Source: an uncultured Candidatus Saccharibacteria bacterium (GTDB lineage Bacteria > Patescibacteriota > Minisyncoccia > Phycocordibacterales > Phycocordibacteraceae). From it: a DNA stretch of 64,000 nucleotides. Both the position numbers and the translations under genes were made by a program. Positions within the stretch are counted from its first letter, which is position 1, and each line of letters starts with the position of its first letter. Under the pieces are notes generated by a model. That model searched no databases. It saw nothing but the letters and a program-made list of their open reading frames with translations, and had not been told where the DNA came from. Location: assembly GCA_964634305.1 (NCBI GenBank), contig CAZWLE010000001.1:78120-142119 (forward strand), read 5' to 3'. Below, one piece after another: positions 36,857 to 52,968 of the stretch.

Positions 36857-37966
36857 ATGCGCCCGCTGAAAATCTCGGGAGATAGGCTCTTTTTTCTCAT
36901 CGTCGTCATTCTCGTCGTCGGTGGCGTCGCAATGTTTGCGTCGGCATCGCTTGGTCTTCTGGCACGTGCAGACGAATCTCCCCTCCGCCTTGCGTTCACG
37001 CAGCTCATGCTTGGGCTCGTGCCAGGCGTCATAGCGCTTCTTGCGCTCCGTTACATGTCTCCCAAGGCGATAGAGCGTTTTGCGCCTATTGTCTACGGAG
37101 GCGCCATTCTCCTTACGCTTCTCGTGTTTATTCCAGGCATAGGCCTCACGCTCAATGGAGCGACGCGCTGGATAAACCTTGGGTTTACTACTGTCCAGCC
37201 AGGCGAGTTCCTCAAAATAGGGGTCATCCTCATGCTTGCGTGGTGGCTTGCACGCGAACGCAGCAAACTCTCTGATTTCCGCTCTGGCCTTATCCCGTTT
37301 GGCATCATCGTGGGTCTGCCGTGTCTCATCCTCCTTGCGATGCCGAATACGTCGACCGCACTCGTTATTGGCGCGACTGCGCTTGGTATGTATCTGCTCG
37401 CGGGTGCGCCTTGGCGCGACATTCTCCTCATCATTGCTGCCGCTGCGCTCGTGCTTGCGATAGCAGTGTTCTCTCGGCCCTACCTTATGAGTCGCGTGAT
37501 GACGTATTTTGACCCTAGTCAGAACGCCCAAACCTCGAGCTACCAGATTCAACAGTCCCTTATAGCCATAGGGTCAGGCGGCATCATTGGTCGCGGGTTT
37601 GGCCAGAGCGCGCAGAAATTTAACTATCTGCCTGAGGCAGTAGGGGACTCGGTTTTTGCCGTGTACGCAGAGGAATTTGGCTTTATAGGGTCCGTCCTCC
37701 TAGTACTGCTGTTTGCAGGGTTTGCCATGCGTGGATTTGCGATAGCTGCTGACGCGTCTACTGCCTTTGGTGCCTTAGCCGCCACAGGACTAACCATGCT
37801 CATATCTATATCCGCCTTTTTAAACATAGGCGCGATGCTCGGTATCCTGCCGCTTACTGGCTTACCCTTACCGTTTGTGTCGCACGGCGGTACCGCGCTT
37901 CTTGCCGCGCTTGCCTCGGTAGGCATTATTTTGAACGTCGGCGCCCATCGAAAGAAGAAAGCCTAG
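36857..37966 (+). CDS. ftsW: SEDS-family peptidoglycan polymerase FtsW/RodA
   Basis: Multi-TM with RWINLG...QPGEFLKIGVILMLAWWLA. Confidence 0.85.
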   Translation: MRPLKISGDRLFFLIVVILVVGGVAMFASASLGLLARADESPLRLAFTQLMLGLVPGVIALLALRYMSPKAIERFAPIVYGGAILLTLLVFIPGIGLTLNGATRWINLGFTTVQPGEFLKIGVILMLAWWLARERSKLSDFRSGLIPFGIIVGLPCLILLAMPNTSTALVIGATALGMYLLAGAPWRDILLIIAAAALVLAIAVFSRPYLMSRVMTYFDPSQNAQTSSYQIQQSLIAIGSGGIIGRGFGQSAQKFNYLPEAVGDSVFAVYAEEFGFIGSVLLVLLFAGFAMRGFAIAADASTAFGALAATGLTMLISISAFLNIGAMLGILPLTGLPLPFVSHGGTALLAALASVGIILNVGAHRKKKA

Positions 37967-38003
37967 TTAGGTATTCACAATAAACATGTGGCGTTCATGA
38001 AGA

Positions 38004-38819
38004 GTGGGCAGCGGATGCTACACTTCATGGTATCTATCGGCACATGCTGGCGAACGCATGAATCTTTTTTCCCTACACAAACATGATCGTCGTATCACGC
38101 ATGTGTATTCGAATGCGACCGTACTTCCGAATCGCTATTCGTTCCGCTTGGTAAAGCGAGCGAGTGCCTACCCGGTTACTGAAACACCGCTTCCTGCGCC
38201 ATACGATATAGCGCCAATAGTAGTAAGCAGCGCACCAGAGCCCGCACCCATACCCGATGAGGCACCTGAGATAGTTACTACATTTGACGAACGTCCAGAG
38301 CTCGGAGCAAGCGTCGTTGACGACCAAAAGCGGATGTTCCTGAAGCTGGCGAGTGTCGTGGGTCTTGGCGTAGTGGCTGCCTCCGCGATTCCAGAAAAAG
38401 CGCAGGCATACGTTATGGGTAGTAGTCCTACCTCAGGCGTCGTCGGAATGAAGGATGCGACTAATACTCGTATTAATCCCGCTACTGAGGAAGCACTCCA
38501 GGCGATTCTGGAAGGTAATGCCGTATTGAAAAAGACCGTGAGTCTATCTGCGTCTGGAACTATCCATACCCCAGCCTCTGGGAAAAAAGTTCGTATCTAC
38601 AACACTAAGTTTTCACTTGATGCGAACGTTACCAGTGTCTCGTTCCGCTTTGCTTCGGGCGGAACTGATTTCGAAAAGTACATCTCGCCACGTACTGGCG
38701 GGCTGTACGGCACGAATAATCACCCGAACTACAAGGAGGGTGGGGTAGACGAGGTCGTATACTGCGTCATAAGCGGTAGCGCGAATGTGCAGATTAATAT
38801 TGATTATCTAGAGGTATAA
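38004..38819 (+). CDS. Hypothetical single-pass membrane protein; internal KR-M-F-L-K motif + hydrophobic core + AQA resembles a Tat-type signal
   Basis: DDQKRMFLKLASVVGLGVVAASAIPEKAQA occurs at residues ~100-130. The N-terminal 100 aa may be cytoplasmic, or the true start may lie downstream. Confidence 0.45.
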   Translation: MGSGCYTSWYLSAHAGERMNLFSLHKHDRRITHVYSNATVLPNRYSFRLVKRASAYPVTETPLPAPYDIAPIVVSSAPEPAPIPDEAPEIVTTFDERPELGASVVDDQKRMFLKLASVVGLGVVAASAIPEKAQAYVMGSSPTSGVVGMKDATNTRINPATEEALQAILEGNAVLKKTVSLSASGTIHTPASGKKVRIYNTKFSLDANVTSVSFRFASGGTDFEKYISPRTGGLYGTNNHPNYKEGGVDEVVYCVISGSANVQINIDYLEV

Positions 38820-38826
38820 TTTTCGT

Positions 38827-41235
38827 ATGGCTAAACGAGTCACCGAGCACACGTTCACTGGAGGTACGGTCATGTATGACGCGTATGATTCCACCAAGAC
38901 CGTTCTTGGCGATCTCATCCGTCAATACACCGGCGCTGCTTCAACAGATAAATTTGCCGGACCAGTTAAAGTTGCGGTTGCTCGCCCAAATGAAACATCA
39001 GTGGCGGTACCAGGTATCTATCCCCATGTGGTGCGGTGGGCCGATAAATCTGGGTACTACTCAACGGGTACCGTAGCAGTATCAGGAACTGCTGTAACCG
39101 GTACCAGCACTGCCTGGTTAACCGCAGGAGTACCCATCAACGCGCGTATTGGCTTTGGCACGACTGATCCTGTCGCAGTAACCACGTGGTACACCATTTC
39201 CGCCATTGCCTCAAACACCTCTATCACGATTGATACGACAGCAGGAACTATTGCGGGAGGTACGTCGTTTGTAATTGATATGAATTACAACATCGATTGG
39301 GTCTTCCTCGCTGACGCTGCGGCTGCGGCTGCCACTCGTCGTATCACCATGTTTGAATTCCGTCGTGGTACATCCGTATTTACTTGGAAGGGGTTTATCA
39401 CTCAAACCTACCCAACAGCTACTAACCACACCATAGCGGGTATGCGTGCTGTGTACGCACCCTACACAACCGGTACCGTTGCTGTATCTGGTGCAACGGT
39501 TACTGGAACGTCTACCTCCTGGAGCACTAACCGTATCAATATTGGATCGCGTATTGGCTTTGGCTCAACGGACCCTACTCAAATTTCGACCTGGTACTAC
39601 ATCAATGCCGTAGGCTCAGATACATCAATCACGATTCAAAATAACGTGACTGCGTCAGGCACGGGCGGTACTGCTTCAAACCTCACCATATCGGGCGGTA
39701 CGGCCTATGTGATTGAAGACTTGCGTGTTCTGACCTCAACAGTAAACGCCACAGCTACCAACGGCGGCCTCTTTATGACCCCTGGTCTCTCCTATGGTGA
39801 TTTCACCGCTGCCGGTACGACTATTGCCGCTGCGACAACGGTTGATAAGGTCAAAGCATGCTACTGGCTCGCTGACGCCTCAACCGTCACCAACGACGTG
39901 GCATCCGGTCTTGCTATTGACGACCAGGACAGTTGGACACAGCAGTACTGTTATGTGATTGAACGTCAAGCAGCGACAACTCCAGCAATATATAAATACA
40001 ATTTTCGTGTTGCGCTTGCCTCAATAACGTCTGGAAAAACTACTAGCGCCTTTGTACTTGCTACTGGTACTCAAAGCGTGACTGGTAACGTATCCCAAAC
40101 CAACAACGGTCGCATCGGCACGCTGCAGCATGGTCCTGGTATAGGAGTGAAATCGCTGTACTTTGCAACAACCACTCGTATCTATCGAGTCGCAGTCACG
40201 AATATTACCAACGCTTCTACGACTTTCCTTTCAGATGCTATGGTTGAAGTACCGACCGGAGGTACTAACACGTATGCTGCGACGGGTGCGTTAACAGGTG
40301 TTGAGATCTCTGACCAAATAGATCGTCTTGTCGTTACGTCGACAGGCGCTGCTGGTGTACGAAGTTATGTAACAAAGTACAACACTAACTCCGATCCGTT
40401 CGACCACATCTTCCTAGTCGATTCAAAACAGCTTGACCAATCAACTGCGGATTCTGATTCAGTTCCTCATCCAAACATTCAGGCAGGTATCATTAACGTA
40501 TGGTCTGAGGAAGGATTGACCTATATTTCTCGCACCGGTACCGCCTCAACGACGAACCATCTCTATGCAGTCCCTCTTGGCGCAGACTGGAGCTATGCGG
40601 ATGGTACGGTAAAGCAACGCCTTGTAACGCCTGAATTGGCTACCCCTAACGCCGTTAAGTATGTGCGCGCATATTTCAACAGCGCTCAGTACTTAGGTCT
40701 CGACAATCTCACCATTCCTACAGAACCAGTGCGCATGTATTACCGCACCTCGGGCATTAGTGATAACTCTGGAGCATGGACACTCATTGATCAAACAGGG
40801 GACATCACCGGAGTAGATGGGGCCGCGTCAATACAGTTTGCTCTAGAGTTCCGCGTTATTGGAACGTTCTGTCTTCCAAACCGTGTCTACAATGTCTGTG
40901 TCGTATATGAAGACGACACTACTGACAGTCACTATCAGCCGTCAGTGGCGAATTCCTCCACGGTTGATAAACGATTTGCGTGGCGCTTCTCAACCGCCTT
41001 TGGTGGCACTGTGCCAACCCTACGGGTACGTCTGTATAACGCTACATCAGGCGGTCTATTGGTTGACGACAATACAGCAAGTCCAACAGGTACGTTTGAG
41101 AAAAGCACCAACGATGGCGGAAGCTGGGGTTCCTACAACACCACTGACAAAGCAAACGACACTACCTACATTCGCTACACTCCTGCGTCCCTTGGTGACA
41201 ACATAAAAGTACGTGCGCTTTTGACTCTGGACTAA
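38827..41235 (+). CDS. Large Thr/Gly/Ser/Ala-rich beta-type protein (802 aa) with internal domain duplication; putative surface/structural protein
   Basis: Two ~150-aa repeats (TGTVAVSGTAVTGTSTAW...RIGFGTTDP...TWY.I.A..S.TSITI). No signal peptide and no catalytic motifs. Confidence 0.5.
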   Translation: MAKRVTEHTFTGGTVMYDAYDSTKTVLGDLIRQYTGAASTDKFAGPVKVAVARPNETSVAVPGIYPHVVRWADKSGYYSTGTVAVSGTAVTGTSTAWLTAGVPINARIGFGTTDPVAVTTWYTISAIASNTSITIDTTAGTIAGGTSFVIDMNYNIDWVFLADAAAAAATRRITMFEFRRGTSVFTWKGFITQTYPTATNHTIAGMRAVYAPYTTGTVAVSGATVTGTSTSWSTNRINIGSRIGFGSTDPTQISTWYYINAVGSDTSITIQNNVTASGTGGTASNLTISGGTAYVIEDLRVLTSTVNATATNGGLFMTPGLSYGDFTAAGTTIAAATTVDKVKACYWLADASTVTNDVASGLAIDDQDSWTQQYCYVIERQAATTPAIYKYNFRVALASITSGKTTSAFVLATGTQSVTGNVSQTNNGRIGTLQHGPGIGVKSLYFATTTRIYRVAVTNITNASTTFLSDAMVEVPTGGTNTYAATGALTGVEISDQIDRLVVTSTGAAGVRSYVTKYNTNSDPFDHIFLVDSKQLDQSTADSDSVPHPNIQAGIINVWSEEGLTYISRTGTASTTNHLYAVPLGADWSYADGTVKQRLVTPELATPNAVKYVRAYFNSAQYLGLDNLTIPTEPVRMYYRTSGISDNSGAWTLIDQTGDITGVDGAASIQFALEFRVIGTFCLPNRVYNVCVVYEDDTTDSHYQPSVANSSTVDKRFAWRFSTAFGGTVPTLRVRLYNATSGGLLVDDNTASPTGTFEKSTNDGGSWGSYNTTDKANDTTYIRYTPASLGDNIKVRALLTLD

Positions 41236-41238
41236 GCC

Positions 41239-41862
41239 ATGACTCCGATTACTAAGAGTGAACAGGTCGCTGATATAAAGGACTTGGTAGTCCTGACAGA
41301 TAGCGGCGAGTACGCAGATACTGATCTTATCCTCTGCGCTTCAACCGATGCGCCAACCATTGCTATTGCTCAGTATCAAGCACAATTCGTGAAGTATGGT
41401 GAAATGGTCTACCAGTTCGAAAAGCCAGAAGAGTTGGGGCAGGCTATCGTTGCACTTGATGCAGAGTCTACACATGACGCTGCGCAATTGTGGCGTGAAG
41501 AAGAGGCACGACGTATCGCACGAGAGCAGGGAACATTGACCCCTGCTGACCAAAGCCCTGCTCCTGATGCAGTCGTACCACCAGAACCTGAAGCAGAGCC
41601 ACAACCAGAAGAAGAGGTTGAATTTCTTAACGACCCGCCTGCACAAAACGCTACATCAACGCCACCGACCAGTGACCAACCGTCTGAACCGGAAATGCCA
41701 GTTATTGACGTCACTGATCCTCCTGAAGTACTAGGAACCACGACTCCTGACCTTCCACCCGTTGACCCAGACCCACTTCCACCTCCTATCACAGAGCCAG
41801 ACATTGTGCCTATTCCTGAACCAGAGGTAATAAGCAATACCAGTACTACCACTCCAGAGTAG
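41239..41862 (+). CDS. Hypothetical protein with globular N-domain and acidic Pro/Glu-rich disordered tail
   Basis: 207 aa; the tail is PEPEAEPQPEEE...PPVDPDPLPPPITEPDIVPIPEPE. Confidence 0.45.
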   Translation: MTPITKSEQVADIKDLVVLTDSGEYADTDLILCASTDAPTIAIAQYQAQFVKYGEMVYQFEKPEELGQAIVALDAESTHDAAQLWREEEARRIAREQGTLTPADQSPAPDAVVPPEPEAEPQPEEEVEFLNDPPAQNATSTPPTSDQPSEPEMPVIDVTDPPEVLGTTTPDLPPVDPDPLPPPITEPDIVPIPEPEVISNTSTTTPE

Positions 41863-41864
41863 CT

Positions 41865-42053
41865 ATGGCACTCACTGATATCAATTTCAACGAAGGTGAA
41901 GGGCAGGATTTTATCGTTGAACGACCTACCGGCACATTAGGAACACCGGTTGATATCCTTCTTACAGCAAACGCTGATGACTATCCGGTGCTTGAGACAG
42001 AACCAGTGGGTGGTGGCGGTGGGGGAGACGAAATCTTCATCATTAACGACTAA
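41865..42053 (+). CDS. Small hypothetical protein (62 aa) with G6 stretch
   Basis: A short ORF tightly packed (2-nt gap) after the previous gene. Confidence 0.3.
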   Translation: MALTDINFNEGEGQDFIVERPTGTLGTPVDILLTANADDYPVLETEPVGGGGGGDEIFIIND

Positions 42054-42076
42054 CGAGACTCTGCTATCCTACGGGC

Positions 42077-42808
42077 ATGGAGGACGCGGTCGGGTTTGCT
42101 GAAACATACGGTACCTATCTAGAGGAGCTGCGGGTTCGTCTATATCGGTTGGCTATTGTCTTTGTCGCTGCTTTTTTTATTGGCGTTGCCTCAACCGGCG
42201 TATTATTGCCATTCTTTGTACGCTTTCTTGCCATAGAGAACGTCACTATTATCACTACGTCTCCTTTTCAATTGCTTGAACTCGCCATGAATACGGGCTT
42301 CTTTGTTGCCCTTATCGTGACCATTCCGCTCGCATTTCATCAGGCATACACGTTTTTGCGCGACGGTCTTTTGCCACAAGAACGACGTATTATCTTTTTT
42401 CTGATACCGCTATCCCTAGGATTGTTTGCGGTAGGGTTCGCCTACGGTTTTGCGGTCATGTACTACGCCATACAATTCATCGCGAGTCTCAATACAACAT
42501 ATGGCATTACGAACCTATGGAGCATTACTCAGTTTATTTCCCAAATGCTCATTACCGCCGCGCTCCTTGGCTGCATTTTCCAATTCCCGGTCATTATTTC
42601 AGGCCTCGTGCGCCTTGGGGTATGTAGCGCGAACTTCCTGCGCCGTCATCGGCGAAGCGCCTATGCCTTGATATTCGTCTTCGTCGCTTTACTTCCCCCT
42701 ACCGACGGGCTATCGTTTCTTGTGATGTCCCTTCCGCTTATAGGACTATACGAGCTCACCATCATCGGTAACTCGTTTGGTCGACGGAAAGAACTCTTAA
42801 AAGCGTAA
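42077..42808 (+). CDS. tatC: Twin-arginine translocase subunit TatC
   Basis: 243 aa with 6 TM and a TatC-like topology and composition (FFV.F...G..F..P). Confidence 0.7.
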   Translation: MEDAVGFAETYGTYLEELRVRLYRLAIVFVAAFFIGVASTGVLLPFFVRFLAIENVTIITTSPFQLLELAMNTGFFVALIVTIPLAFHQAYTFLRDGLLPQERRIIFFLIPLSLGLFAVGFAYGFAVMYYAIQFIASLNTTYGITNLWSITQFISQMLITAALLGCIFQFPVIISGLVRLGVCSANFLRRHRRSAYALIFVFVALLPPTDGLSFLVMSLPLIGLYELTIIGNSFGRRKELLKA

Positions 42809-42819
42809 CCTTAGCACCT

Positions 42820-42978
42820 ATGTTTGGACTCGGTTCAAATGAGCTCATCATCATCGCAGTCATTCTTGTGCTCCTTTTTGGCGCAACAAGAATTCCTGCC
42901 CTCACTCGTGGGGTAGCGGACGCGATTCGCACGCTCCGCGGCGCATTCAAGGACGAGGACAAGAACAAGAAGGGCTAG
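42820..42978 (+). CDS. tatA: Twin-arginine translocase subunit TatA/E (52 aa)
   Basis: It is absent from the track (<60 aa). MFGLGSNELIIIAVILVLLFGATRIP has an N-terminal TM, a hinge, and an amphipathic helix (ALTRGVADAIRTLRGAF). Confidence 0.7.
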   Translation: MFGLGSNELIIIAVILVLLFGATRIPALTRGVADAIRTLRGAFKDEDKNKKG

Positions 42979-43064
42979 CGTTCGCTTGTTCAAGAACACC
43001 GCCACAGGAGCACTGTGGCGGTGTTCTTGTGTAGATGTGGAAATGATGAAGAAAAGGGGGGTGG

Positions 43065-46000
43065 GTGGGTGCTACCATAGCTACAGCCTCACGGCGGCAT
43101 TCCGTGCATATTCCATCTTTCACCACTGCACGTATTACGCGACTAAGCGCACTAGCGTTGGTTCTGTTCGCTGTACTTGCTGCAACGGCGTATGCCGCGT
43201 ATCCGCAGTACCTTCCCAACACGTCTGTCACCATCGGTGAATTTGTGTATGACGACGATTTTCAAGCAACCACCACTGCTGGCTGTACCGTCAGCGTGTA
43301 CGAGCCAGGAGGCAGTCTGTCAGTTAACGCTGCTTCTATGTCAGCTGACGCCAACAGCTGGTACTCGTACTCATTTACACCGTCCGGAGGGACGGTCGGT
43401 ATTTGGCGCACCGTCATGTCGTGTGGCTCCTCAGGAAATGGCAGTCTTATCCGTGCTGACAAGACCTTTGAGATTACCAACAACATCGTCTCATCGACCT
43501 CGGTCGCCGCACTCGTTAACACCAACACCAACACGGCCATAGCAACTGCCTCTTCTTCACTCTCAGCCACATTACCTGGGTCTATTTGGGCTTTCTCTGG
43601 AAGAACGCTGACGTCGTTTGGTACGTTGGTGTCTGACATCTGGGCAAACGGTACGCGTACGCTCACTGGTTTTGGCACGCTCGCGTCTGACGTATGGGGT
43701 GTCGCAACGAGAACGCTTACCGCTGCAACACTAAGCTCCGGTTCGCTCGCGACTCTCACTGACGTTCAGAACGCGTCGTCATCAGTAGTCACACTGGTAA
43801 ACGCCAATACTAATACAGCATCGTCATCGATAGCGTCGGTAGTAAATGCCAACACGAACGCCATTGTTGCAGTGGCATCATCCTCTCTAGCTGCGGTGAT
43901 AAATGCGAACACTAACGCATCCATCCTTACTGCTTCTACGTCACTTGGCACGTCGATTGCTTCTGTATCTACATCGATTACCAATATTCCAACAGCCGTA
44001 TGGGCATCGGGTACACGCACCCTAACCTCATTTGGCACGCTCGCGTCAGACGTATGGACGAGTGGTACGCGCACACTCACAGGCGCAGGTCTCACCTCAG
44101 GTTCACTCGCTACACAAACGGATGTGCAGAATGCATCGTCATCGGTAGTGACGCTCGTAAATGCTAATACCAACACTACCGTTAATACCGCATCCTCCTC
44201 ACTTGCGGCTGTTATTAACGCAAATACCAACCTGCAAGTCCTCACCGCATCCTCATCTCTTGGCGCATCAATTGCGGCTGTCGCATCCTCAATCACTAAT
44301 ATCCCAACGAATGTATGGGCTGCAGGTACTCGTACGCTCACGAGTTACGGCACGCTCGCGGCTGATGTGTGGACCAACGGTACGCGCACGCTTACCGGTG
44401 CCGGTCTCTCGTCTGGCTCACTTGCGACACAGTCTGACGTTCAAACTGCCTCCTCGTCACTTGGCTCAGCGGTTTCTGCAAGTACGGCGAGCGTAAATGC
44501 CAACACTAACTCCATTGTAGGTACTGCTTCGTCATCGCTCGCTGCCATCATTAACGCGAACACGAACCTTCAAGTCCTGACCGCATCAACCTCACTTGGT
44601 ACTTCGATTGCATCCGTAGCGTCTTCAATCACGAACATTCCAACCGCAGTCTGGGCTGCGGGTACCCGTACGCTCACTGGGTTTGGCACCCTTGCAGCTG
44701 ACGTCTGGACCAACGGCACGCGTACGCTTACCGGTGCGGGCCTCACGTCTGGTTCACTCGCTACACAAACGGATGTGCAGAATGCATCGTCATCGGTCGT
44801 AACGCTTGTAAATGCCAACACGAATACCACCGTTGGTACGGCATCTTCGTCGATAGCGTCTGTCGTGAATGCCAATACGAATGCACAGGTTCTTGCTGCA
44901 TCCTCGTCGCTTGGTGCAACTCTTTCAACCCTCTCAAGCTCTATATCAAACGTTCCTGCAGCCGTTTGGAATATTGCTACATCGACTCTCACCACACCAG
45001 GTTCTATCGGCAGGGTGCTTGCGCTTAACATCGATATTCCAATCTCTTCCGTTTCGGGCGGCGCTGGCATCACCGTTGCTGATATCTGGGCATATGGCGC
45101 ACGTACACTCACAAGCGCCGCACTCACCTCAGGTTCACTCGCTACACAAACGGATGTACAAAATGCCTCCTCGTCTGTCGTTACTCTTGTGAACGCAAAT
45201 ACCAACACGGCCTCCTCCTCAATCGCAGCGGTGGTGAATGGCACGATTGTTACTGCGTCGTCATCGCTTGGTTCAGCAATATCGGCAGGTACGGCAAGCG
45301 TAAATGCCAACACGAATGCAACGGTGCTGAACGCATCGTCGTCTCTTGCAACATCGATTTCTGGTATACCGGCAGCAGTATGGGCAGCTGGAACACGTAC
45401 CCTAACCTCCTTTGGTACGCTCGCAGCTGATGTATGGACGAACGGCACACGCACACTCACCGACGCTGGTCTTACTTCAGGTTCGCTTGCGACCCAATCT
45501 GATGTTCAGACCGCATCAAGCTCTCTAGGGGCTGCAGTCTCTGCAGGGACAGCAAGCGTAAATGCCAACACGAACGCAGTCGTTGGTTCCGCATCCTCTT
45601 CGCTCGCATCAGTTATCAATGCAAATACCAATCTCCAGGTACTCACCGCATCAACCTCACTTGGTACCTCTATCGCATCGGTTGCTACCTCAATCACCAA
45701 CATTCCAACCGCAGTATGGGCTGCGGGTACCCGTACGCTTACTGGATTTGGCACCCTCGCGTCTGACGTGTGGGCAGTTGGAACACGTACGCTCACGGGC
45801 GCTGGTCTTAGCTCCGGTTCACTTGCCACACAGTCTGATGTTCAGACCGCCTCCTCGTCACTTGGCTCAGCCGTTGCTGCTGGTACGGCGAGTGTGAACG
45901 CGAACACTAACAGTATCGTTGGCACCGCATCCTCCTCGATAGCAGCAGTGGTGAATGCCAATACTAACTCCGTCGTTGCCATCGCATCCTCCTCACTTGC

Positions 46001-49000
46001 CGCCGTCATTAATGCAAACACGAACGCAGCAGTCCTCACGGCTTCTACCTCACTTGGCACATCGATTGCATCCGTCGCAACGTCAATCACCAATATTCCA
46101 ACGGCCGTATGGGCCTCAGGTACTCGTTCTCTCACCACGTTTGGCACGCTCGCCTCTGATGTATGGGCCGTTGGTACACGTACCCTCACTGGCGCAGGTC
46201 TGAGCTCAGGCAGCCTTGCGACCCTTACTGACGTTCAGAACGCATCTTCATCGGTCGTAACGCTGGTTAATGCCAATACCAACACTACCGTCGGCACTGC
46301 CTCTTCATCGCTTGGTTCAGCGGTCTCTGCAGGAACCGCAAACGTGAATGCAACGGTCGCTACTGCATCGTCATCACTCGCATCAATCATTAATGCGAAC
46401 ACTAACCTTCAGGTACTGACCGCATCCTCATCTCTTGGTGCATCAATTGCGACTGTTGCGTCTTCTATAACAAATATTCCTACCAATGTATGGGCTGCAG
46501 GTACTCGTACACTCACGAGTTACGGCACCCTCGCGGCTGATGTATGGACGAACGGCACAAGAACGCTCACTGGCGCAGGTCTAAGTTCAGGTTCACTCGC
46601 AACACAATCAGACGTTCTTACTGCATCAAGCTCTCTCGGTTCAGCGGTATCTGCAGGAACCGCGAGTGTGAATGCGAATACTAATAGCGTCGTAGGCACT
46701 GCCTCGTCATCAATTGCATCGATAGTTAACGCAAACACTAATACTCAGGTCCTCACCGCCTCCACGTCACTCGGTGCTTCTATCGCATCCGTAGCGTCTT
46801 CAATCACGAACATTCCAACCGCAGTCTGGGCTGCGGGTACCCGTACGCTCACTGGGTTTGGCACCCTTGCAGCTGACGTCTGGACCAACGGCACGCGTAC
46901 GCTTACCGGTGCGGGCCTCACGTCTGGTTCACTCGCTACACAAACGGATGTGCAGAATGCATCGTCATCGGTCGTAACGCTTGTAAATGCCAACACGAAT
47001 ACCACCGTTGGTACGGCATCTTCGTCGATAGCGTCTGTCGTGAATGCCAATACGAATGCACAGGTTCTTGCTGCTTCCTCGTCTCTTGGCGCATCACTCA
47101 GCGCGCTCCCAACCGCTATTTGGGGCGTAGCAACAAGCACGTTGAATGTTCCTAACTCCATTGGTCTCGTACTCGCCACAAACATCGACCGCGCTATCTC
47201 AAGCGTTACTGGTGTGGGAGGAGGCCTCAGCGCGGCTGATGTATGGGCATACGGTACCCGCACACTCACTGGCGCATCCCTTACTTCAGGCTCACTTGCC
47301 GTTCAGTCAGATGTACTCACTGCTTCCTCATCGCTTGGTAGTGCAATTACGAATAGTCAGACCGCAATCAATAGCAATACCGACACAACGGTCGGGACGG
47401 CATCGAGCTCCATCGCTGCAGTGGTGAATGCAAACACCAACTCAGTCGTACAGGCAGCATCTTCATCGCTTGGGATTTCACTTTCCAGTCTTGCGTCAGC
47501 CGTTGCCGCGGTACCAGTAGGGGTGTGGGCAAACAGTACTCGTTCACTCACGACGTTCGGCACCCTCGCGTCTGATGTATGGGGTGTAGGTACTCGTACG
47601 TTGACCGGTGCTGGTCTCTCGTCTGGATCACTTGCAACACAAACTGACGTACAGACTGCCTCAAGCTCGGTCGCTGCAGTCGTAAACGCAAACACGAATG
47701 CTGCTATTAGCACTGCATCATCGTCAGTAGCATCAGTCGTTAATGCCAATACCAACGCGAGCGTACTAACTGCGTCTACATCGCTCGGTACATCGATCGC
47801 ATCGGTCGCAACGTCTATCACCAACATTCCAACCGCGGTCTGGGCAGCAGGCACCCGTACGCTTACTGGATTTGGCACCCTTGCAGCTGACGTCTGGACC
47901 AACGGTACGCGCACGCTTACCGGTGCCGGTCTCTCGTCTGGCTCACTTGCGACACAGTCTGATGTTCAAACAGCTTCTTCATCGCTTGGCTCAGCGGTTA
48001 CTGCCGGTACGGCGAGTGTGAACGCGAACACTAACAGTGTCGTTGGCACCGCATCCTCCTCTGTTGCGTCAGTCGTGAATGCAAACACAAACGCAACGGT
48101 TCTCGCTGCGTCATCATCTCTTGGCCTGTCCCTCTCAACGATTTCTTCGTCCATCACCGGCATCCCAACTGCGGTATGGGGCGTGGCTACCTCAACGCTT
48201 TCAACACCAGGGTCGATTGGTCGCGTACTCTCAGAAAACATCGACATTCCACTCTCTACTATTTCAGGTGGGGGAGGAGCTACCGCAGCTGACATCTGGG
48301 CGTACGGCGCACGCACACTCACAAGCGCTGCGCTCACGTCAGGCGCTATCGCTACCCAAAGCGACATACAGACCGCATCGTCATCTATCGCTGCAGTCGT
48401 GAATACGAATACGTTCACGACGGTCTCTAATGCGTCGTCATCCATTGCTGCAGTCGTTAATACAAACACGGTCGCTGCAGTACAAACTGCTTCAACCTCT
48501 CTCGGTGCTTCAATTTCAAATATTCCAAACGCGGTATGGAGTGCAAGTACCAGAACCCTCACGTCGTTTGGCACCTTGGTTAACGACATATGGAACTTCG
48601 CAACGCGTACACTCACGACCAGTACATCAGCAACCTGGAGTATGTCGCTCTCTGGCTCTAAGAATGTTCTTGCAGGTACGGCATATCGCGCCACGGTAAC
48701 GCTTTCAAATGACGGAAATCTTGAAGACCCATTGGCTGCACCAACGATTACGATTTATGACAGCAATCGTGCAGCCGTCGTCACTAATGCTGCAATGACG
48801 CATGCAGGTACTGGTATCTATCAGTACACGCTCACTACCTCAGGCAGTGCATCGGAAGGTGCATGGGAAGCACTCGTTACCTCAAACGTTGAGAGCGGAA
48901 AGACGCTCACGAGTTCTGAGTTCTTCACGCTCTCAACCGCACCAGCGCAGGTGCTCATCCAGTCGATGGCATCCACCACCGTGCCAAACATTGCCGCAAA

Positions 49001-49487
49001 CATTCGTATCACAAACGAAGGTAACGTCGATTACGAATACCAGTACGAGTGGTGTGTGGTATCTACGATTGGTAACGCCTGTGGTGGGGGAGACGACATC
49101 TACTACGCATCAGCTGCCAAACTCATTGAGACGGGACAAAACTTTGATACCACGCTCACCGCAACCGTACCGCTTACCGGTACCTACTACTTCAAGACGG
49201 TCGTCTATTTCGGTGCTGAATCGTCTGGCGCCTCACGTCAGTTCACTGCAACGGCTGGCAGCACCGGTGGTGGTGGAGGCGGTGGTGGAAGCGGTAGTTG
49301 TGATGACAACCGTGAAGACGCTGACCTTAACTGTGACGGCAAGGTAAATGCCATCGACTTCTCGATTCTTCTAGCGTTCTGGAAGACAGAGCCACCGTTC
49401 CGTAATCCGGGGGTTGACCTCAATAATGACGGCAAAGTGGATGCTATCGACTTCTCGATACTTCTCTACCGCTGGGAACGCAATTAA
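43065..49487 (+). CDS. Giant repetitive surface protein (2140 aa): RR-containing signal/anchor, ~1900 aa of Ala/Ser/Thr/Asn-rich tandem repeats, Gly-rich linker, C-terminal type-I dockerin
   Basis: GTG start after an AAAAGGGGGG tract. The N-terminus is ASRRHSV + LSALALVLFAVLAATAYA. Repeats carry VNANTN / WAAGTRTLTGFGTLAADVW motifs. The C-terminus has duplicated Ca-binding segments DLNCDGKVNAIDFSILL / DLNNDGKVDAIDFSILL. Confidence 0.8.
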   Translation: MGATIATASRRHSVHIPSFTTARITRLSALALVLFAVLAATAYAAYPQYLPNTSVTIGEFVYDDDFQATTTAGCTVSVYEPGGSLSVNAASMSADANSWYSYSFTPSGGTVGIWRTVMSCGSSGNGSLIRADKTFEITNNIVSSTSVAALVNTNTNTAIATASSSLSATLPGSIWAFSGRTLTSFGTLVSDIWANGTRTLTGFGTLASDVWGVATRTLTAATLSSGSLATLTDVQNASSSVVTLVNANTNTASSSIASVVNANTNAIVAVASSSLAAVINANTNASILTASTSLGTSIASVSTSITNIPTAVWASGTRTLTSFGTLASDVWTSGTRTLTGAGLTSGSLATQTDVQNASSSVVTLVNANTNTTVNTASSSLAAVINANTNLQVLTASSSLGASIAAVASSITNIPTNVWAAGTRTLTSYGTLAADVWTNGTRTLTGAGLSSGSLATQSDVQTASSSLGSAVSASTASVNANTNSIVGTASSSLAAIINANTNLQVLTASTSLGTSIASVASSITNIPTAVWAAGTRTLTGFGTLAADVWTNGTRTLTGAGLTSGSLATQTDVQNASSSVVTLVNANTNTTVGTASSSIASVVNANTNAQVLAASSSLGATLSTLSSSISNVPAAVWNIATSTLTTPGSIGRVLALNIDIPISSVSGGAGITVADIWAYGARTLTSAALTSGSLATQTDVQNASSSVVTLVNANTNTASSSIAAVVNGTIVTASSSLGSAISAGTASVNANTNATVLNASSSLATSISGIPAAVWAAGTRTLTSFGTLAADVWTNGTRTLTDAGLTSGSLATQSDVQTASSSLGAAVSAGTASVNANTNAVVGSASSSLASVINANTNLQVLTASTSLGTSIASVATSITNIPTAVWAAGTRTLTGFGTLASDVWAVGTRTLTGAGLSSGSLATQSDVQTASSSLGSAVAAGTASVNANTNSIVGTASSSIAAVVNANTNSVVAIASSSLAAVINANTNAAVLTASTSLGTSIASVATSITNIPTAVWASGTRSLTTFGTLASDVWAVGTRTLTGAGLSSGSLATLTDVQNASSSVVTLVNANTNTTVGTASSSLGSAVSAGTANVNATVATASSSLASIINANTNLQVLTASSSLGASIATVASSITNIPTNVWAAGTRTLTSYGTLAADVWTNGTRTLTGAGLSSGSLATQSDVLTASSSLGSAVSAGTASVNANTNSVVGTASSSIASIVNANTNTQVLTASTSLGASIASVASSITNIPTAVWAAGTRTLTGFGTLAADVWTNGTRTLTGAGLTSGSLATQTDVQNASSSVVTLVNANTNTTVGTASSSIASVVNANTNAQVLAASSSLGASLSALPTAIWGVATSTLNVPNSIGLVLATNIDRAISSVTGVGGGLSAADVWAYGTRTLTGASLTSGSLAVQSDVLTASSSLGSAITNSQTAINSNTDTTVGTASSSIAAVVNANTNSVVQAASSSLGISLSSLASAVAAVPVGVWANSTRSLTTFGTLASDVWGVGTRTLTGAGLSSGSLATQTDVQTASSSVAAVVNANTNAAISTASSSVASVVNANTNASVLTASTSLGTSIASVATSITNIPTAVWAAGTRTLTGFGTLAADVWTNGTRTLTGAGLSSGSLATQSDVQTASSSLGSAVTAGTASVNANTNSVVGTASSSVASVVNANTNATVLAASSSLGLSLSTISSSITGIPTAVWGVATSTLSTPGSIGRVLSENIDIPLSTISGGGGATAADIWAYGARTLTSAALTSGAIATQSDIQTASSSIAAVVNTNTFTTVSNASSSIAAVVNTNTVAAVQTASTSLGASISNIPNAVWSASTRTLTSFGTLVNDIWNFATRTLTTSTSATWSMSLSGSKNVLAGTAYRATVTLSNDGNLEDPLAAPTITIYDSNRAAVVTNAAMTHAGTGIYQYTLTTSGSASEGAWEALVTSNVESGKTLTSSEFFTLSTAPAQVLIQSMASTTVPNIAANIRITNEGNVDYEYQYEWCVVSTIGNACGGGDDIYYASAAKLIETGQNFDTTLTATVPLTGTYYFKTVVYFGAESSGASRQFTATAGSTGGGGGGGGSGSCDDNREDADLNCDGKVNAIDFSILLAFWKTEPPFRNPGVDLNNDGKVDAIDFSILLYRWERN
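43500..48600 (+). repeat. Intragenic tandem repeat array (unit ~110 aa / ~330 bp, higher-order period ~2175 bp) including ~290-bp identical copies at 44610-44899 and 46785-47074
   Basis: Checked by direct comparison of nucleotide lines. Other copies are ~80-90% identical. The many antisense track ORFs here are repeat artefacts. Confidence 0.8.
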
Positions 49488-49489
49488 CT

Positions 49490-50323
49490 ATGAGACCTTT
49501 CCTTATCGCTCTTCTGCTTCTTCTCATCGCGCCAAGCGCGCATGCTGCGCGTGTTGAAGTGACGCCGTCCGTAAGCGAAGCGGCACCAGGTCAATCATTC
49601 ACTCTTACGGTCGTCTTGTTTGCTGACGAGACCGCGGTGAACGTTGCCGAAGGAAGGATTCTTATTCCTGAAGGCGTCCATGTAGATGCGGCAAGTGTTG
49701 CCGGTGCTGCGTTTACGCTCTGGCCCTCTCCACCTTCTTACTCTCCCGTTGAAAACGCTGTCCTGTTCTCAGGAGGCGTCCCTGGCGGTATTGCAGGCAG
49801 AACATCAGGTACGCTATTTACGATACGCGCTCGTGCGGATGAAGCAGGTTCGTACGTGTTCTCACCACGCGCCGTCAACGCATATCTTGATGATGGAAAA
49901 GGTACGTTGGATTCCGTCACTACTTCGTCAGCCGTGGTGTCAGTGCATGAGGGCGCATCAGCACCAGCCGGTGTCGATCAAGCAAAGGAACCACTCTCTG
50001 CCGCGATTGGTAGTGACCCATCACTCTTTGACGGTAAATACTTTGTTGCCTTTTATGGTGGCGACCGAGGTAACGGCATCCTTCGCTACGAAGTGAAGGA
50101 AGGTGTCTTTGGTAGCTTTGTTGACGCTGGACGCTACTACGTACTCGAAGACCAATCGCTTGGGCGCCAGATTACGATTCGCGCGATAGACGCTGAGGGT
50201 GTCGCTGCAGAGAAGGTACTTGCCGCAGAACGTGGTATTCCTGCCTGGGTCTTCATCGCCGGTGCCATCTTCCTCGCCCTTGCTCTCTGGCGCCTCATCC
50301 GCCGCATGCGCAGCCGCGTATGA
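49490..50323 (+). CDS. Cohesin-like domain protein, Sec signal peptide, C-terminal TM anchor
   Basis: Signal is MRPFLIALLLLLIAPSAHA. The cohesin-like pattern is VEVTPSVSEAAPGQSFTLTVVL...NVAEGRILIPEGVHV. The C-terminus is WVFIAGAIFLALALW + RRMRSR. Confidence 0.55.
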   Translation: MRPFLIALLLLLIAPSAHAARVEVTPSVSEAAPGQSFTLTVVLFADETAVNVAEGRILIPEGVHVDAASVAGAAFTLWPSPPSYSPVENAVLFSGGVPGGIAGRTSGTLFTIRARADEAGSYVFSPRAVNAYLDDGKGTLDSVTTSSAVVSVHEGASAPAGVDQAKEPLSAAIGSDPSLFDGKYFVAFYGGDRGNGILRYEVKEGVFGSFVDAGRYYVLEDQSLGRQITIRAIDAEGVAAEKVLAAERGIPAWVFIAGAIFLALALWRLIRRMRSRV

Positions 50324-51783
50324 AAAAGCTCCTCGCACTCACCCTCGCACTCTTTCTTCTAGCGCCGTCAGCGTTTGCGGCGAGCATGAGCGTGCTGCCG
50401 GCAGGACGGAATGTTAATGCCGGTGACCTCGTGACTGCACGCGTCTCTATTAATACGAGCGGGGTAGCAATTAACCAAGCAGAAGCAACGCTTCGTTTTC
50501 CTACCGATGTTCTGGAAGTAGTCTCAGTGTCAAAGTCGTCGTCTATCTTCTCACTCTGGGTTGAAGAGCCAACCTATTCAAATACCGCAGGTACCGTTTC
50601 TTTTAATGGTGGTGTCCCAACCCCTGGCTACACCGGAAGCGACGGTGCGGTTGTCTCCGTCACTTTTCATGCAAAGACAGCAGGGACGGCGAGCCTTCTC
50701 CTGTCCGATGCAGCGGTGCGCGCAAACGACGGGCGAGGAACGGATGTTCTGTCCAGCTGGAGTGGGGCAACGATAACCGTAACCGCTGTCACTACGCCTG
50801 CGCCGCTTCCTGCTGCACCGACGCCGACGCCTAGCCCTACGCCGACCCCAACACCAGCTCCAATACCGTCTGACACCTCTGCAACCATTTCCTCGCTGAC
50901 GCACCCAAGTCAGGACATGTGGTATGCAAACGCGAATCCGACCGTACGCTGGAGCCTGCCACGTGGCGCCACCTCCGTACAAGTCATCGTTTCTTCTGAC
51001 CAAGATGCAGTCCCTACCGTCACCCACGCCGCATCGGTGACCGAACGAAAGATTGAGAATCTTGCAGACGGCACCTCGTACTTCAATCTTCGCTACCGCA
51101 CAGGTAGTACGTGGAGTGACCTGTATACCTTCCGTCTCAATATCGATACCGCACCACCAGAAGCGATGACGCACTCGTTTGTATATGACGAAGCATCACG
51201 TGAGCTCATGATTGCGCTTGCGGCAAGCGATGAGACGTCAGGTATCGCAAGCTACGAGCTCACGATTGACAAAGACGCTCCGGTATCACTTCGCGCTGAA
51301 GCGTTTGCGGAAGGTACCTACGGGTATCCGGTTGATGAACCAGGTCTCCACACCGTCTCACTCGCCATTATTGATAAAGCAGGGAATCGTCTCACGATAC
51401 CGGGCTCCTTCATGGTTCCGGTTTCCGTCCTCGACACGCCACTCGTCTCGTTCGGCTTCTTCAATATCACCTTGCTCGGCGCACTCCTCTTCATGGGCCT
51501 CATCTCCATACTTTCTCTCCTCGTTGCCGCTACTGCGCTCTGGCGTCCGCACCAGAAGCCAAAGAAAGCTGCATCTCCGGTAAAGGGTCGTGCGTCAAAA
51601 GAGATAGTCCGTCAGGCATTCGATATCTTGCGCCAAGACCTTGATACGAATGTAGGCGTAGCACAGAAGATACGAGACGGTAAGCCGCTCACCGCTGAAG
51701 ATGAGGCTGCGGGCCGCACCATGCGTAAAAACCTTGATGACTTCGAGCGTTACCTCAACGAGGAGGCAAACCTCTCCAAGTAG
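50320..51783 (+). CDS. Cohesin-like domain protein with Pro/Thr linker, Ig/FN3-like middle domains, C-terminal TM anchor and cytoplasmic tail
   Basis: Signal is MKKLLALTLALFLLAPSAFA. The cohesin-like N-domain is NVNAGDLVTARVSINTSGVAINQAEATLRFPTDVLEVVSV. A TPTPSPTPTPTP linker and a TM (LLGALLFMGLISILSLLVAATALW) follow. Confidence 0.55.
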   Translation: MKKLLALTLALFLLAPSAFAASMSVLPAGRNVNAGDLVTARVSINTSGVAINQAEATLRFPTDVLEVVSVSKSSSIFSLWVEEPTYSNTAGTVSFNGGVPTPGYTGSDGAVVSVTFHAKTAGTASLLLSDAAVRANDGRGTDVLSSWSGATITVTAVTTPAPLPAAPTPTPSPTPTPTPAPIPSDTSATISSLTHPSQDMWYANANPTVRWSLPRGATSVQVIVSSDQDAVPTVTHAASVTERKIENLADGTSYFNLRYRTGSTWSDLYTFRLNIDTAPPEAMTHSFVYDEASRELMIALAASDETSGIASYELTIDKDAPVSLRAEAFAEGTYGYPVDEPGLHTVSLAIIDKAGNRLTIPGSFMVPVSVLDTPLVSFGFFNITLLGALLFMGLISILSLLVAATALWRPHQKPKKAASPVKGRASKEIVRQAFDILRQDLDTNVGVAQKIRDGKPLTAEDEAAGRTMRKNLDDFERYLNEEANLSK

Positions 51784-51813
51784 GAGAGGGGGCGCGTGCT
51801 ATCATGCCCGCAC

Positions 51814-52968
51814 ATGAAGATAGTTTTCGCCGGCGGAGCCACAGGTGGTCACTTCTACCCCCTTATTGCAGTCGCTGAAGAGGTCCGCGCACTCGCACGC
51901 GAACGACAGCTTATTGAGCCGAAGCTCTACTATCTTGCGCCTACCACGTTTGATACAGAGGCACTCTTTGAGAACGAAATTACTTTTATCCCCTGTCCTG
52001 CAGGGAAGTGGCGTCGCTATTTCTCCCTCCAAAACTACACCGACCTTTTTGTAACCCTTGGCGGCTGCATTTCAGCCGTTATGACACTGTTCTCGATATA
52101 TCCGGATGTCGTCTTTAGTAAGGGAGGGTATGCATCAGTGCCCGTAGTGCTTGCGGCACGTCTTCTACGCATTCCGGTCATCATTCACGAATCAGATGTA
52201 GAGCCAGGACGTGCAAACCTTCTCGCTGCCTCATTTGCGTACCGTATTGCGGTGACTTTTGATAAAACGACGACGTACTTCCCAGAAAAAGTACGCGGAA
52301 AGGTCGCACGTACCGGTATTCCCATTCGCAGCGCGCTTCGTCATCCCGTAGCAGAAGGTGCGCGCGAAGAACTACGCCTCGACCCGAACGTTCCTACCAT
52401 TCTTATTTTGGGTGGGTCATCTGGCGCACAGAAGATTAACGAAGTAGTGCTTTCAGGTCTTTCCGAACTGGTTGATACCGCAAATATCATTCATCAAACG
52501 GGACGCGACCTCTATACCGGCGTCGCCGGTGCCGCAAAAGTGATTCTTGAGAAAAGCGCGAACGCTGGTCGCTATCACGCCTTCCCATACCTCAACTCAC
52601 TCTCTATGCGCCGCGCGTCTGGTGCTGCAGACCTTGTCGTATCCCGCGCTGGTATGACGGCAGTTGCCGAGATTTCTATCTGGGGTAAGCCAGCTATTCT
52701 CATTCCGATTCCCGAGTCGGTAAGCCATGACCAACGCACCAACGCATACGCATATGCGCACACGGGTGCGGCGAGTGTGCTCGAAGAGCAGAACCTCTCG
52801 CCACACGTCCTCGTGTCTGAAGCTCGTCGCATCCTTGGTGACGCAAATGTGCGCAGCGCCATGAGTGCCGCGAGCGCAACCTTCGCGAACGTTGAGGCTG
52901 GGAAGATTATTGCTGAAGAACTTATTGCGCTTGGTTTGTCCCACGAACCACAGGCAAAAAACTTCTAA
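51814..52968 (+). CDS. murG: UDP-N-acetylglucosamine--N-acetylmuramyl-(pentapeptide) pyrophosphoryl-undecaprenol N-acetylglucosamine transferase
   Basis: MKIVFAGGATGGHFYP is the G-loop, and the GT28 C-terminal domain is present. The start is set at Met7 of the track ORF. Confidence 0.85.
   Translation: MKIVFAGGATGGHFYPLIAVAEEVRALARERQLIEPKLYYLAPTTFDTEALFENEITFIPCPAGKWRRYFSLQNYTDLFVTLGGCISAVMTLFSIYPDVVFSKGGYASVPVVLAARLLRIPVIIHESDVEPGRANLLAASFAYRIAVTFDKTTTYFPEKVRGKVARTGIPIRSALRHPVAEGAREELRLDPNVPTILILGGSSGAQKINEVVLSGLSELVDTANIIHQTGRDLYTGVAGAAKVILEKSANAGRYHAFPYLNSLSMRRASGAADLVVSRAGMTAVAEISIWGKPAILIPIPESVSHDQRTNAYAYAHTGAASVLEEQNLSPHVLVSEARRILGDANVRSAMSAASATFANVEAGKIIAEELIALGLSHEPQAKNF

Follow-up and report, generated by a model that had tools for sequence, protein, structure and literature searches.

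A dockerin-bearing giant protein and two membrane-anchored cohesins in a conserved three-gene cassette of Parcubacteria-type bacteria

Organization of the locus

The window analysed here, a stretch of 64,000 nucleotides from contig CAZWLE010000001.1 (assembly GCA_964634305.1), carries three consecutive forward-strand genes that are candidates for a surface-display cassette based on cohesin and dockerin modules. The first gene (43065–49487) encodes a secreted giant protein of 2140 residues with a C-terminal dockerin, hereafter the giant or cargo protein, and it is followed by the genes for a short cohesin anchor of 277 residues (P1, 49490–50323) and a long cohesin anchor of 487 residues (P2, 50320–51783). 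The TAA stop codon of the giant gene is separated by 2 nucleotides (nt) from the P1 ATG, and the dockerin and P1 are encoded in different reading frames. At the next junction, the P1 and P2 genes share the start/stop overlap ATGA at 50320–50323 (sequence context ...cgc gtATGAaa...), and base-by-base reading placed the P2 ATG at 50320–50322 and the P1 TGA at 50321–50323. Both the open reading frames (ORFs) of the two anchors and their 4-nt overlap were thus real, as claimed in an earlier note made from the sequence of this locus. A scan of the whole window with hidden Markov models (HMMs) detected one dockerin and two cohesins, all of them in the products of these three genes, and no further dockerin or cohesin.

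Cohesin identity of the N-terminal domains

The assignment of the N-terminal domains of P1 and P2 to the cohesins was supported by sequence families and by fold comparison. P2 residues 31–133 matched the Pfam Cohesin family (PF00963) with 29.3 bits, above the gathering score of 24.1 (E=1.1e-6), and the same family was found (E<=0.01) in 19 of the 43 P2-family members scanned with Pfam, P2 having at least 178 homologues. The P1 of the window gave no direct Pfam Cohesin match; among the 39 members scanned from a family of about 44 homologues, six matched it, the best with E=9.5e-12. The two N-domains were related to each other by BLASTP (E=2e-10, 34% identity over 128 residues), and the alignment of the two family profiles by hhalign (probability 100%, E=7.9e-45) identified the proteins as paralogues, P2 corresponding to P1 with an inserted linker and fibronectin type III (FN3) domain and an added cytoplasmic extension.

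Comparisons of sequence with solved structures were less informative, since phmmer searches of P1 and P2 against the Protein Data Bank (PDB) sequences yielded nothing beyond noise, in the form of light chains of antibodies and a Pro-rich match of low complexity, and the P1-family profile recovered cohesins of R. flavefaciens weakly (E=0.0055), so that a comparison of folds was needed. AlphaFold2 models built on the family alignments had a predicted local distance difference test score (pLDDT) of 89 for P1 and 86 for P2, and the best Foldseek matches of both were cohesins, with TM-scores of 0.70–0.78 to type I cohesins. The top match of both models was 2w1n, a cohesin and FN3 double module, and P2 shared 20–22% identity with the cohesins of C. 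acetobutylicum and C. cellulolyticum. Each N-domain formed the nine-stranded flattened beta-sandwich that superimposes on solved cohesins.

These N-domains are therefore genuine cohesin domains: with the P2 match above the Pfam gathering score and cohesins as the Foldseek matches of both proteins, the fold recognition proposed in the earlier note led to cohesins and not to an unrelated beta-sandwich family. The cohesin pattern on which that note had relied held as to homology and fold, although its literal motif was loosely matched, with AG in place of PG in P2 and F in place of V in P1. A type II cohesin paired with an X-dockerin was also considered and rejected, given TM-scores to type II cohesins of about 0.55–0.60, cohesin models composed of strands without the type II helix or flaps, and a dockerin preceded by a poly-Gly run instead of an X-module.

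Architecture and membrane anchoring of P1 and P2

P1 begins with a Sec-type signal peptide (residues 1–19, 49490–49546; MRPFLIALLLLLIAPSAHA|A) with predicted cleavage after AHA, in which A19 is nearly invariant across the family and the model shows a helix at residues 2–11. The cohesin domain follows (residues 20–155, 49547–49954) and, after a short linker, a membrane-proximal immunoglobulin (Ig)-like domain similar to DUF7743 (residues ~165–245, 49982–50224), recognized from the conserved motif DPSLFDGKYF...SGI..YEVKEG of the family alignment. DUF7743 was matched in seven of the 39 P1-family members, and profile alignment showed this domain to be homologous to P2 residues 276–356. The protein ends with a transmembrane helix (residues 252–270, within a model helix at 252–276) and the basic tail RRMRSRV (271–277), together at 50243–50320.

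In P2, a signal peptide (residues 1–20; MKKLLALTLALFLLAPSAFA|A) precedes the cohesin domain (residues 21–155, 50380–50784, supported by PF00963 and Foldseek). A Pro/Thr-rich linker (residues 156–187, 50785–50880), disordered in the model, without secondary structure and with pLDDT below 50 over residues 173–184, separates it from a stalk of model strands (50881–51417) composed of an FN3-like domain (188–275) and an Ig-like domain resembling DUF7743 and Big_13 (276–366). The fold matches of the stalk were tandem FN3 domains and the cohesin and FN3 module of 2w1n, and DUF7743 and Big_13 were found in 20 and 15 of the 43 P2-family members, respectively. A model helix at residues 385–412 (51472–51555) forms the transmembrane segment and is directly followed by the basic stretch RPHQKPKKAASPVKGRASK, which opens a cytoplasmic region (51556–51780) with a helical hairpin of helices 420–452 and 459–486. 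This hairpin of about 70 residues (420–486) is conserved (...DLEKHL..L..AR..R.LT.EE..L......NL.DLERYL), L457 and E461 hardly varying among the family members, and it is more than a passive anchor would need.

Several expectations about this architecture were confirmed and others had to be revised. Cleavable Sec signal peptides had been proposed for both proteins and are indeed predicted from a reading of the sequence, both peptides having a classical appearance without lipobox Cys or twin arginine, and with the alanines of the A-x-A motif invariant or nearly so in both families. The Pro/Thr linker and the two Ig/FN3-like domains of P2 were likewise borne out by the model, the fold matches and the Pfam matches of the family. 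Such domains had been assigned to the second protein only, and the membrane-proximal Ig-like domain shows that P1 has one too. Similarly, a C-terminus made of a transmembrane helix and a basic cytoplasmic tail describes P1 well but falls short for P2, whose cytoplasmic hairpin extends beyond the helix.

The mode of anchoring was examined in the 73 P1-like C-termini, all of which had a strongly hydrophobic 19-mer followed by 3–19 mostly Lys/Arg residues. Before the transmembrane segment of these sequences, LPxT[GASN] occurred once, PEP once and PGF twice, so that no conserved sortase, exosortase or archaeosortase motif was present, and the idea of a sortase-independent anchor held up with LPxTG in just one of the 73 P1-like proteins. 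Moreover, a cleaved sorting signal would be incompatible with P2 because a cytoplasmic domain of about 75 residues follows its transmembrane helix. The processing by a sortase, exosortase or archaeosortase was ruled out on these two grounds, and no S-layer homology (SLH) family was found among the Pfam matches of P1, P2 or their family members. We infer that P1 is held by a plain type I transmembrane helix, with a topology consistent with the positive-inside rule.

The giant cargo protein and its dockerin

The giant protein starts with a signal peptide and a conserved MG2-like module at the N-terminus, continues with a long repetitive body rich in Thr, Ser, Ala and Asn with repeats of about 170 residues, MG2-like Ig domains and a poly-Gly linker, and ends with the C-terminal dockerin. 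Its Pfam MG2 match was sub-threshold, a match to the carbohydrate-binding module (CBM) family CBM26 (E=0.16) lay far below the cut-off, and TRF detected no DNA-level tandem repeat in the gene with a period of up to 500 and a score of at least 200. The Gly-rich linker GGGGGGGGSGS (residues ~2068–2078, 49266–49298) lies before the dockerin, and a poly-Gly run at this place was seen in all four loci aligned.

The type I-like dockerin occupies the very C-terminus (residues 2087–2140, 49323–49484), the last 54 residues of the protein matching Pfam Dockerin_1 (PF00404) with 34.5 bits against a gathering score of 22.9. It is formed by two near-identical segments, DLNCDGKVNAIDFSILLAFWKT and DLNNDGKVDAIDFSILLYRWER, each with an EF-hand-like loop and a helix. 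With the Ca loops DLNCDGKVNAID and DLNNDGKVDAID, the module fits the pattern of type I dockerins, a tandem duplicate of ~22-residue segments in which an EF-hand-like loop (D1, N3, D5, N/D9, D12) precedes a helix. Across 72 loci the dockerin consensus was ADFNGDGKVNSVDFSILLAFWKT.PPF.NP.VDINKDGKVDSVDFSILLYQWG, with the EF-hand ligand positions kept in at least 92% of the sequences and both SVDFSILL helices conserved, while the tails were specific to the repeat (AFWKT vs YQWG). Two Cys flank the start of the dockerin in the window (SGSCDDNREDADLNCDG, 49299–49340, giant residues ~2079–2092). Among the 72 loci, a Cys stood at loop position 4 of repeat 1 in 17 and just before repeat 2 in 25, and these residues may form a disulfide in some lineages. 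A homology search with the 59-residue dockerin alone returned six short fragments and nothing else.

The proteins bearing this dockerin varied widely, their sizes ranging from 304 to more than 5500 residues. They had in common the signal peptide and an N-terminal module with the motif IGEFVYDDDF.ATTT..C, and Dockerin_1 scored above its gathering threshold at the C-terminus of all 14 cargo proteins tested with Pfam. Their bodies were otherwise unrelated, comprising FN3 arrays, Gly-rich repeats, Thr/Ser/Ala/Asn-rich repeats and MG2-like Ig domains, and no catalytic Pfam domain was found in these 14 proteins, which matched MG2-like domains, fn3 and unannotated repeats only. FN3 arrays were observed, for example, in the cargo of the related loci L002 and L058, and Gly-rich repeats of the GGxGG type in those of L036 and L058.

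Conservation of the cassette across loci

The linkage of the three genes was studied in 82 loci, namely the window and 81 non-redundant related loci (numbered with the prefix L), by scans with HMMs of the P1 and P2 families, the dockerin, TatC and TatA; 77 of them could be evaluated, the upstream sequence being too short in the other five. The order dockerin protein, P1-like, P2-like was found in 56 of the 77, and in another 18 the P1 position was taken by a short form of about 200 residues with signal peptide, cohesin, transmembrane helix and basic tail and without the Ig domain. The triad was therefore present in 74 of the 77 evaluable loci (96%). In view of this synteny, the earlier proposal that P1 and P2 are candidate receptors of the upstream dockerin was supported, and "candidate" expresses its right strength. 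Two tandem P2 paralogues were observed in L023 and L065.

The genes were also tightly packed. With start codons assigned heuristically, the median spacing was 3 nt from the dockerin stop to the P1 start and –4 nt from P1 to P2, the latter genes overlapping in 68% of the junctions (72 loci), and 92% of the gene junctions lay within 30 nt, an operon-like arrangement.

In taxonomic terms, P2 relatives were present in 209 GTDB species-representative genomes, and all P1 and P2 homologues came from metagenome-assembled genomes (MAGs) of the Parcubacteria/Paceibacteria type, the type of the genome in the window as well. The titles of cassette-bearing MAGs (L045, L078 and many others) read 'Flavobacteriaceae', 'Gammaproteobacteria' or 'Candidatus Saccharibacteria' despite a Paceibacteria-like cassette and neighbours, and such odd titles probably reflect mistakes made when the source records were binned or labelled.

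Constraint and co-variation of the modules

The modules of the cassette differed in their constraint. Over 73 triads, the mean pairwise distance was 0.34 for the dockerin, 0.48 for the P2 cohesin, 0.65 for the Ig/FN3 domains of the P2 stalk, 0.68 for the P1 cohesin and 0.71 for the P2 cytoplasmic part. The dockerin and the P2 cohesin were thus the two most constrained modules, which is the pattern expected of an interface kept while its surroundings drift. Moreover, both cohesin families shared one set of residues conserved at 90% or more: strand 3 has an Asn, S..W...P lies around strand 5, and F.GG.P.G and (N)DG.GT follow strands 6 and 8, respectively. Going by the strand numbering of the models, these residues would lie on or beside the 8-3-6-5 sheet, which is the dockerin-binding face in solved complexes. 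In a mirror-tree analysis that partly controlled for phylogenetic confounding, the dockerin had a partial correlation of 0.30 with the P1 cohesin and 0.13 with the P2 cohesin.

These data bear on a tentative alternative, according to which only one of the two cohesins, most likely that of P2, is the dockerin receptor, and P1 or its short form serves another ligand, capping or the regulation of occupancy. The much stronger conservation of the P2 cohesin would agree with it, as would the variable architecture of P1, with its Ig-less form in 18 loci, and the fact that canonical dockerins take one cohesin at a time through the dual-binding mode of type I. However, the shared set of conserved residues speaks against such a division of labour, the divergence of the dockerin was tracked better by the P1 cohesin than by that of P2, and in the 74 of 77 loci that had a P1-like gene it invariably separated the dockerin gene from P2.

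A proposed model of cohesin-dockerin surface display

What the data show are the identities of the domains, their architecture, the canonical residues of the Ca loops and a nearly universal linkage of the genes. On this basis, the three genes are best read as a cassette by which a Parcubacteria/Paceibacteria bacterium displays a surface protein through non-cellulosomal cohesin and dockerin modules, a reading to which we assign a probability of roughly 0.7. The cassette would be co-expressed, as its tight and often overlapping gene spacing suggests, and the giant protein would be exported with its Ca2+-binding type I-like dockerin at the extreme C-terminus, behind the flexible poly-Gly linker. 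P1 and P2 would be exported by the Sec pathway with cleavage of their signal peptides, each remaining in the cytoplasmic membrane by its single transmembrane helix in a predicted type I orientation (N-out, C-in). Their stalks would hold the N-terminal cohesins off the membrane, that of P1 being short, with one Ig-like domain, and that of P2 long, with an Ig-like and an FN3-like domain and a Pro/Thr linker of about 30 residues, so that P2 could plausibly span the wall. Docking of the dockerin would then depend on Ca and involve the cohesin of P1, that of P2 or both. The outcome would be a non-covalent tether for a giant, fast-diversifying and non-enzymatic fibre, likely an adhesin, in place of SLH or sortase anchoring.

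Several points weigh against this reading. The loci examined were the 80 best P2 matches, the dockerin HMM was built from four sequences only, and three of the 77 evaluable loci (L018, L023 and L054) had a P2 relative with neither dockerin nor P1 nearby. The cohesin assignment of P1 had to do without a direct Pfam match in the window and with the weak profile match to solved cohesins already described, and the mirror-tree signal was weak and favoured the P1 cohesin rather than the better-conserved one of P2. Demonstrated dockerin partners are not general among non-cellulosomal cohesins. Finally, the cassette has two cohesins per single dockerin, an arrangement for which there are three possibilities: an anchoring at two alternative heights, a dual-face dockerin that bridges both cohesins, and one cohesin with another job.

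An improbable reading proposes that the cohesin folds bind a different ligand and not the dockerin, such as the surface of a host or partner cell, a glycan or the cell wall, the dockerin being a Ca-binding or carbohydrate-binding end module and the adjacency of the genes reflecting a shared function in a surface structure. In its favour are the many cohesins and dockerins outside cellulosomes that lack a demonstrated partner (PMC9012536) and the missing direct Pfam match of the window P1. Against this, all top structural matches were dockerin-binding cohesins, the dockerin and the P2 cohesin were the most constrained modules of the cassette, one dockerin stood beside its only nearby cohesins in 96% of the loci, and an adjacent cohesin/dockerin pair of C. 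lentocellum has been found to form a complex (PMC13487519).

Relation to known cohesin-dockerin systems

A cellulosome was considered and rejected, since P1 and P2 have one cohesin per protein, no other cohesin was detected in the window, and there was no multi-cohesin scaffoldin, carbohydrate-active enzyme (CAZyme) cargo, CBM, or SLH or sortase anchor. The display cassette shares with the cellulosomal single-cohesin anchors, such as OlpA (3ul4) and OlpC (4dh2) of C. thermocellum, SdbA/OlpB and ScaE of R. flavefaciens (2zf9), a cell-attached N-terminal cohesin that would capture a C-terminal dockerin, and cohesins of these anchors were among the best structural matches of P1 and P2. Unlike anchors of the OlpA/OlpC/ScaE type, it uses a single transmembrane helix instead of SLH repeats or LPXTG, its cargo is a non-enzymatic giant repeat protein and not a scaffoldin or CAZyme, and it has two paralogous anchors per dockerin in an ultrasmall Patescibacteria host.

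The cassette belongs with the non-cellulosomal cohesin-dockerin systems, such as those of A. fulgidus, C. perfringens and the ANME (anaerobic methanotrophic) archaea (PMC9012536). In these, the cohesins reside in soluble enzymes or in proteins associated with S-layers or cytochromes (A. fulgidus cohesin, 2xdh; GH84C/NagJ cohesin and FN3 of C. perfringens, 2w1n; ANME archaea, PMC9012536), unlike in the cassette. The sequence identity to these non-cellulosomal cohesins was 11–18%. To our knowledge, none of the non-cellulosomal examples is a lineage-wide three-gene operon with transmembrane-anchored cohesins.

Two further published cases were compared with the cassette. The ClcC/ClcD pair of Cellulosilyticum lentocellum is encoded by adjacent genes with a single cohesin and a single dockerin and was experimentally shown to form a heterodimer, which provides a precedent for adjacent cohesin and dockerin genes as partners; that pair is cellulase-enhancing and has one cohesin, with neither a transmembrane-anchored paralogous pair nor a giant structural cargo (PMC13487519). 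SEML1_0315 of the saccharibacterium Southlakia epibionticum, reported as essential, is a dockerin-domain envelope protein (PMC10633639) and, like the cargo of the cassette, an Ig/FN3-rich one in a bacterium from the candidate phyla radiation (CPR). However, the genes next to it are those of an alpha/beta hydrolase and a tRNA and not of a cohesin, and its host belongs to another CPR class; it was rejected as the same system because of the lack of cohesin neighbours.

Some members of the families have been named 'cohesin domain-containing protein' or 'dockerin type I domain-containing protein' by the NCBI pipeline, and the domain identities are thus not new. A search of the literature on dockerins and cohesins in Parcubacteria, CPR and Patescibacteria, incomplete in its coverage, found no description of the cassette. 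What is new is the system-level picture of a lineage-wide pair of transmembrane-anchored cohesins together with a dockerin-tagged variable giant in Paceibacteria.

A large part of bacterial diversity belongs to the Patescibacteria (CPR), which are believed to live in attachment to other cells. In this context, the proposed cassette would offer a concrete anchoring mechanism for the display of giant, fast-evolving surface proteins in Parcubacteria-type lineages, in which a strongly conserved dockerin and two membrane-anchored cohesins are kept while the cargo body varies from about 300 to more than 5500 residues. Cohesin-dockerin biology would also come to include a display system that is non-enzymatic and anchored by plain transmembrane helices. 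Small modules that lend themselves to recombinant expression make the mechanism cheap to test, and native giants or whole cells could be labelled or pulled down from enrichments of uncultivated bacteria with a recombinant cohesin as the affinity handle.

Upstream genes and genomic setting

Upstream of the giant gene lie tatC (42077–42808, forward strand, Pfam TatC) and tatA (42820–42978, forward strand, an ORF), components of the twin-arginine translocation (Tat) system, and these are preceded by three unannotated genes, U1 (38004–38819), U2 (38827–41235) and U3 (41239–41862). A tatC-tatA pair directly upstream of the dockerin gene was recurrent, TatA being adjacent in 19 of the 34 loci with a complete dockerin gene. 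In several loci two or three tandem copies of tatA were seen, the observations on tat genes covering the window, L015, L018, L023, L027, L033, L059 and L081; in L018 and L023, the P2 relative directly followed tatC and three tatA copies. The full order U1-U2-U3-TatC-TatA-Doc-P1-P2 occurred in at least nine loci with complete sets (L003, L006, L033, L039, L040, L042, L053, L055 and L081) and partially in about five more. The products of U1, U2 and U3 had no Pfam, NCBIfam or PDB sequence match; U2 (802 residues) is rich in Thr, Ala and Gly, with internal repeats and no obvious signal peptide, and U3 has an acidic, Pro-rich tail.

This setting relates to two further readings. It is unlikely, though it deserves mention, that the eight-gene Paceibacteria module builds a new cell-surface appendage, in which the symmetric dockerin would clamp both cohesins in a hetero-trimer with one helix face each, the two stalk lengths would set the geometry of the fibre base, and the P2 hairpin would couple the fibre to the cell interior, by signalling or force, during episymbiotic attachment. 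Very unlikely is a role of P1 and P2 as export or assembly factors, and not permanent anchors, that would bind the dockerin end of the giant for a limited time at the membrane, while it is translocated or afterwards, and then hand it over or release it, possibly with TatAC and the U1-U3 products. Its attraction lies in the frequent position of the cassette within the eight-gene order and in the conserved cytoplasmic hairpin of P2, which would be superfluous for a passive anchor. It fits poorly with the incomplete adjacency of TatA and the scarcity of twin arginines in the cargos concerned (about eight of the 19), with the typically very tight and long-lived nature of cohesin-dockerin bonds, and with the distal placement of the cohesin on an Ig/FN3/Pro-Thr stalk, which suits display over chaperoning.

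As for the substrate of the Tat genes, the giant protein carries SRRHSV about 20 residues before the hydrophobic region (h-region) of its signal peptide, and an RR in the n-region of the signal peptide was present in about eight of the 19 TatA-adjacent cargos and in none of the rest, P1 and P2 also being without it. The giant is, from these signal sequences, a rather unlikely Tat substrate. A better Tat-like motif occurs in U1, where QKRMFLKLASVVGLGVVAASAIPEKAQA|YVMG (residues ~108–136, ~38325–38420) holds a KR variant of S/T-R-R-x-F-L-K with an h-region and A-x-A behind it. The true start of U1 is probably further downstream, since this motif lies about 108 residues into the longest ORF and the homologues have about 200 residues. 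The Tat substrate may be U1 instead of the giant, which would explain the adjacent tatCA.

At 36857–52968 of the window, the module is inserted in a gene cluster for division and the cell wall, with ftsW on one side and murG on the other, and the same position was found in L003. In L001 and L002, the downstream neighbours were quite different and included a two-component system and cytochrome oxidase genes. The module therefore behaves as a self-contained, relocatable block.

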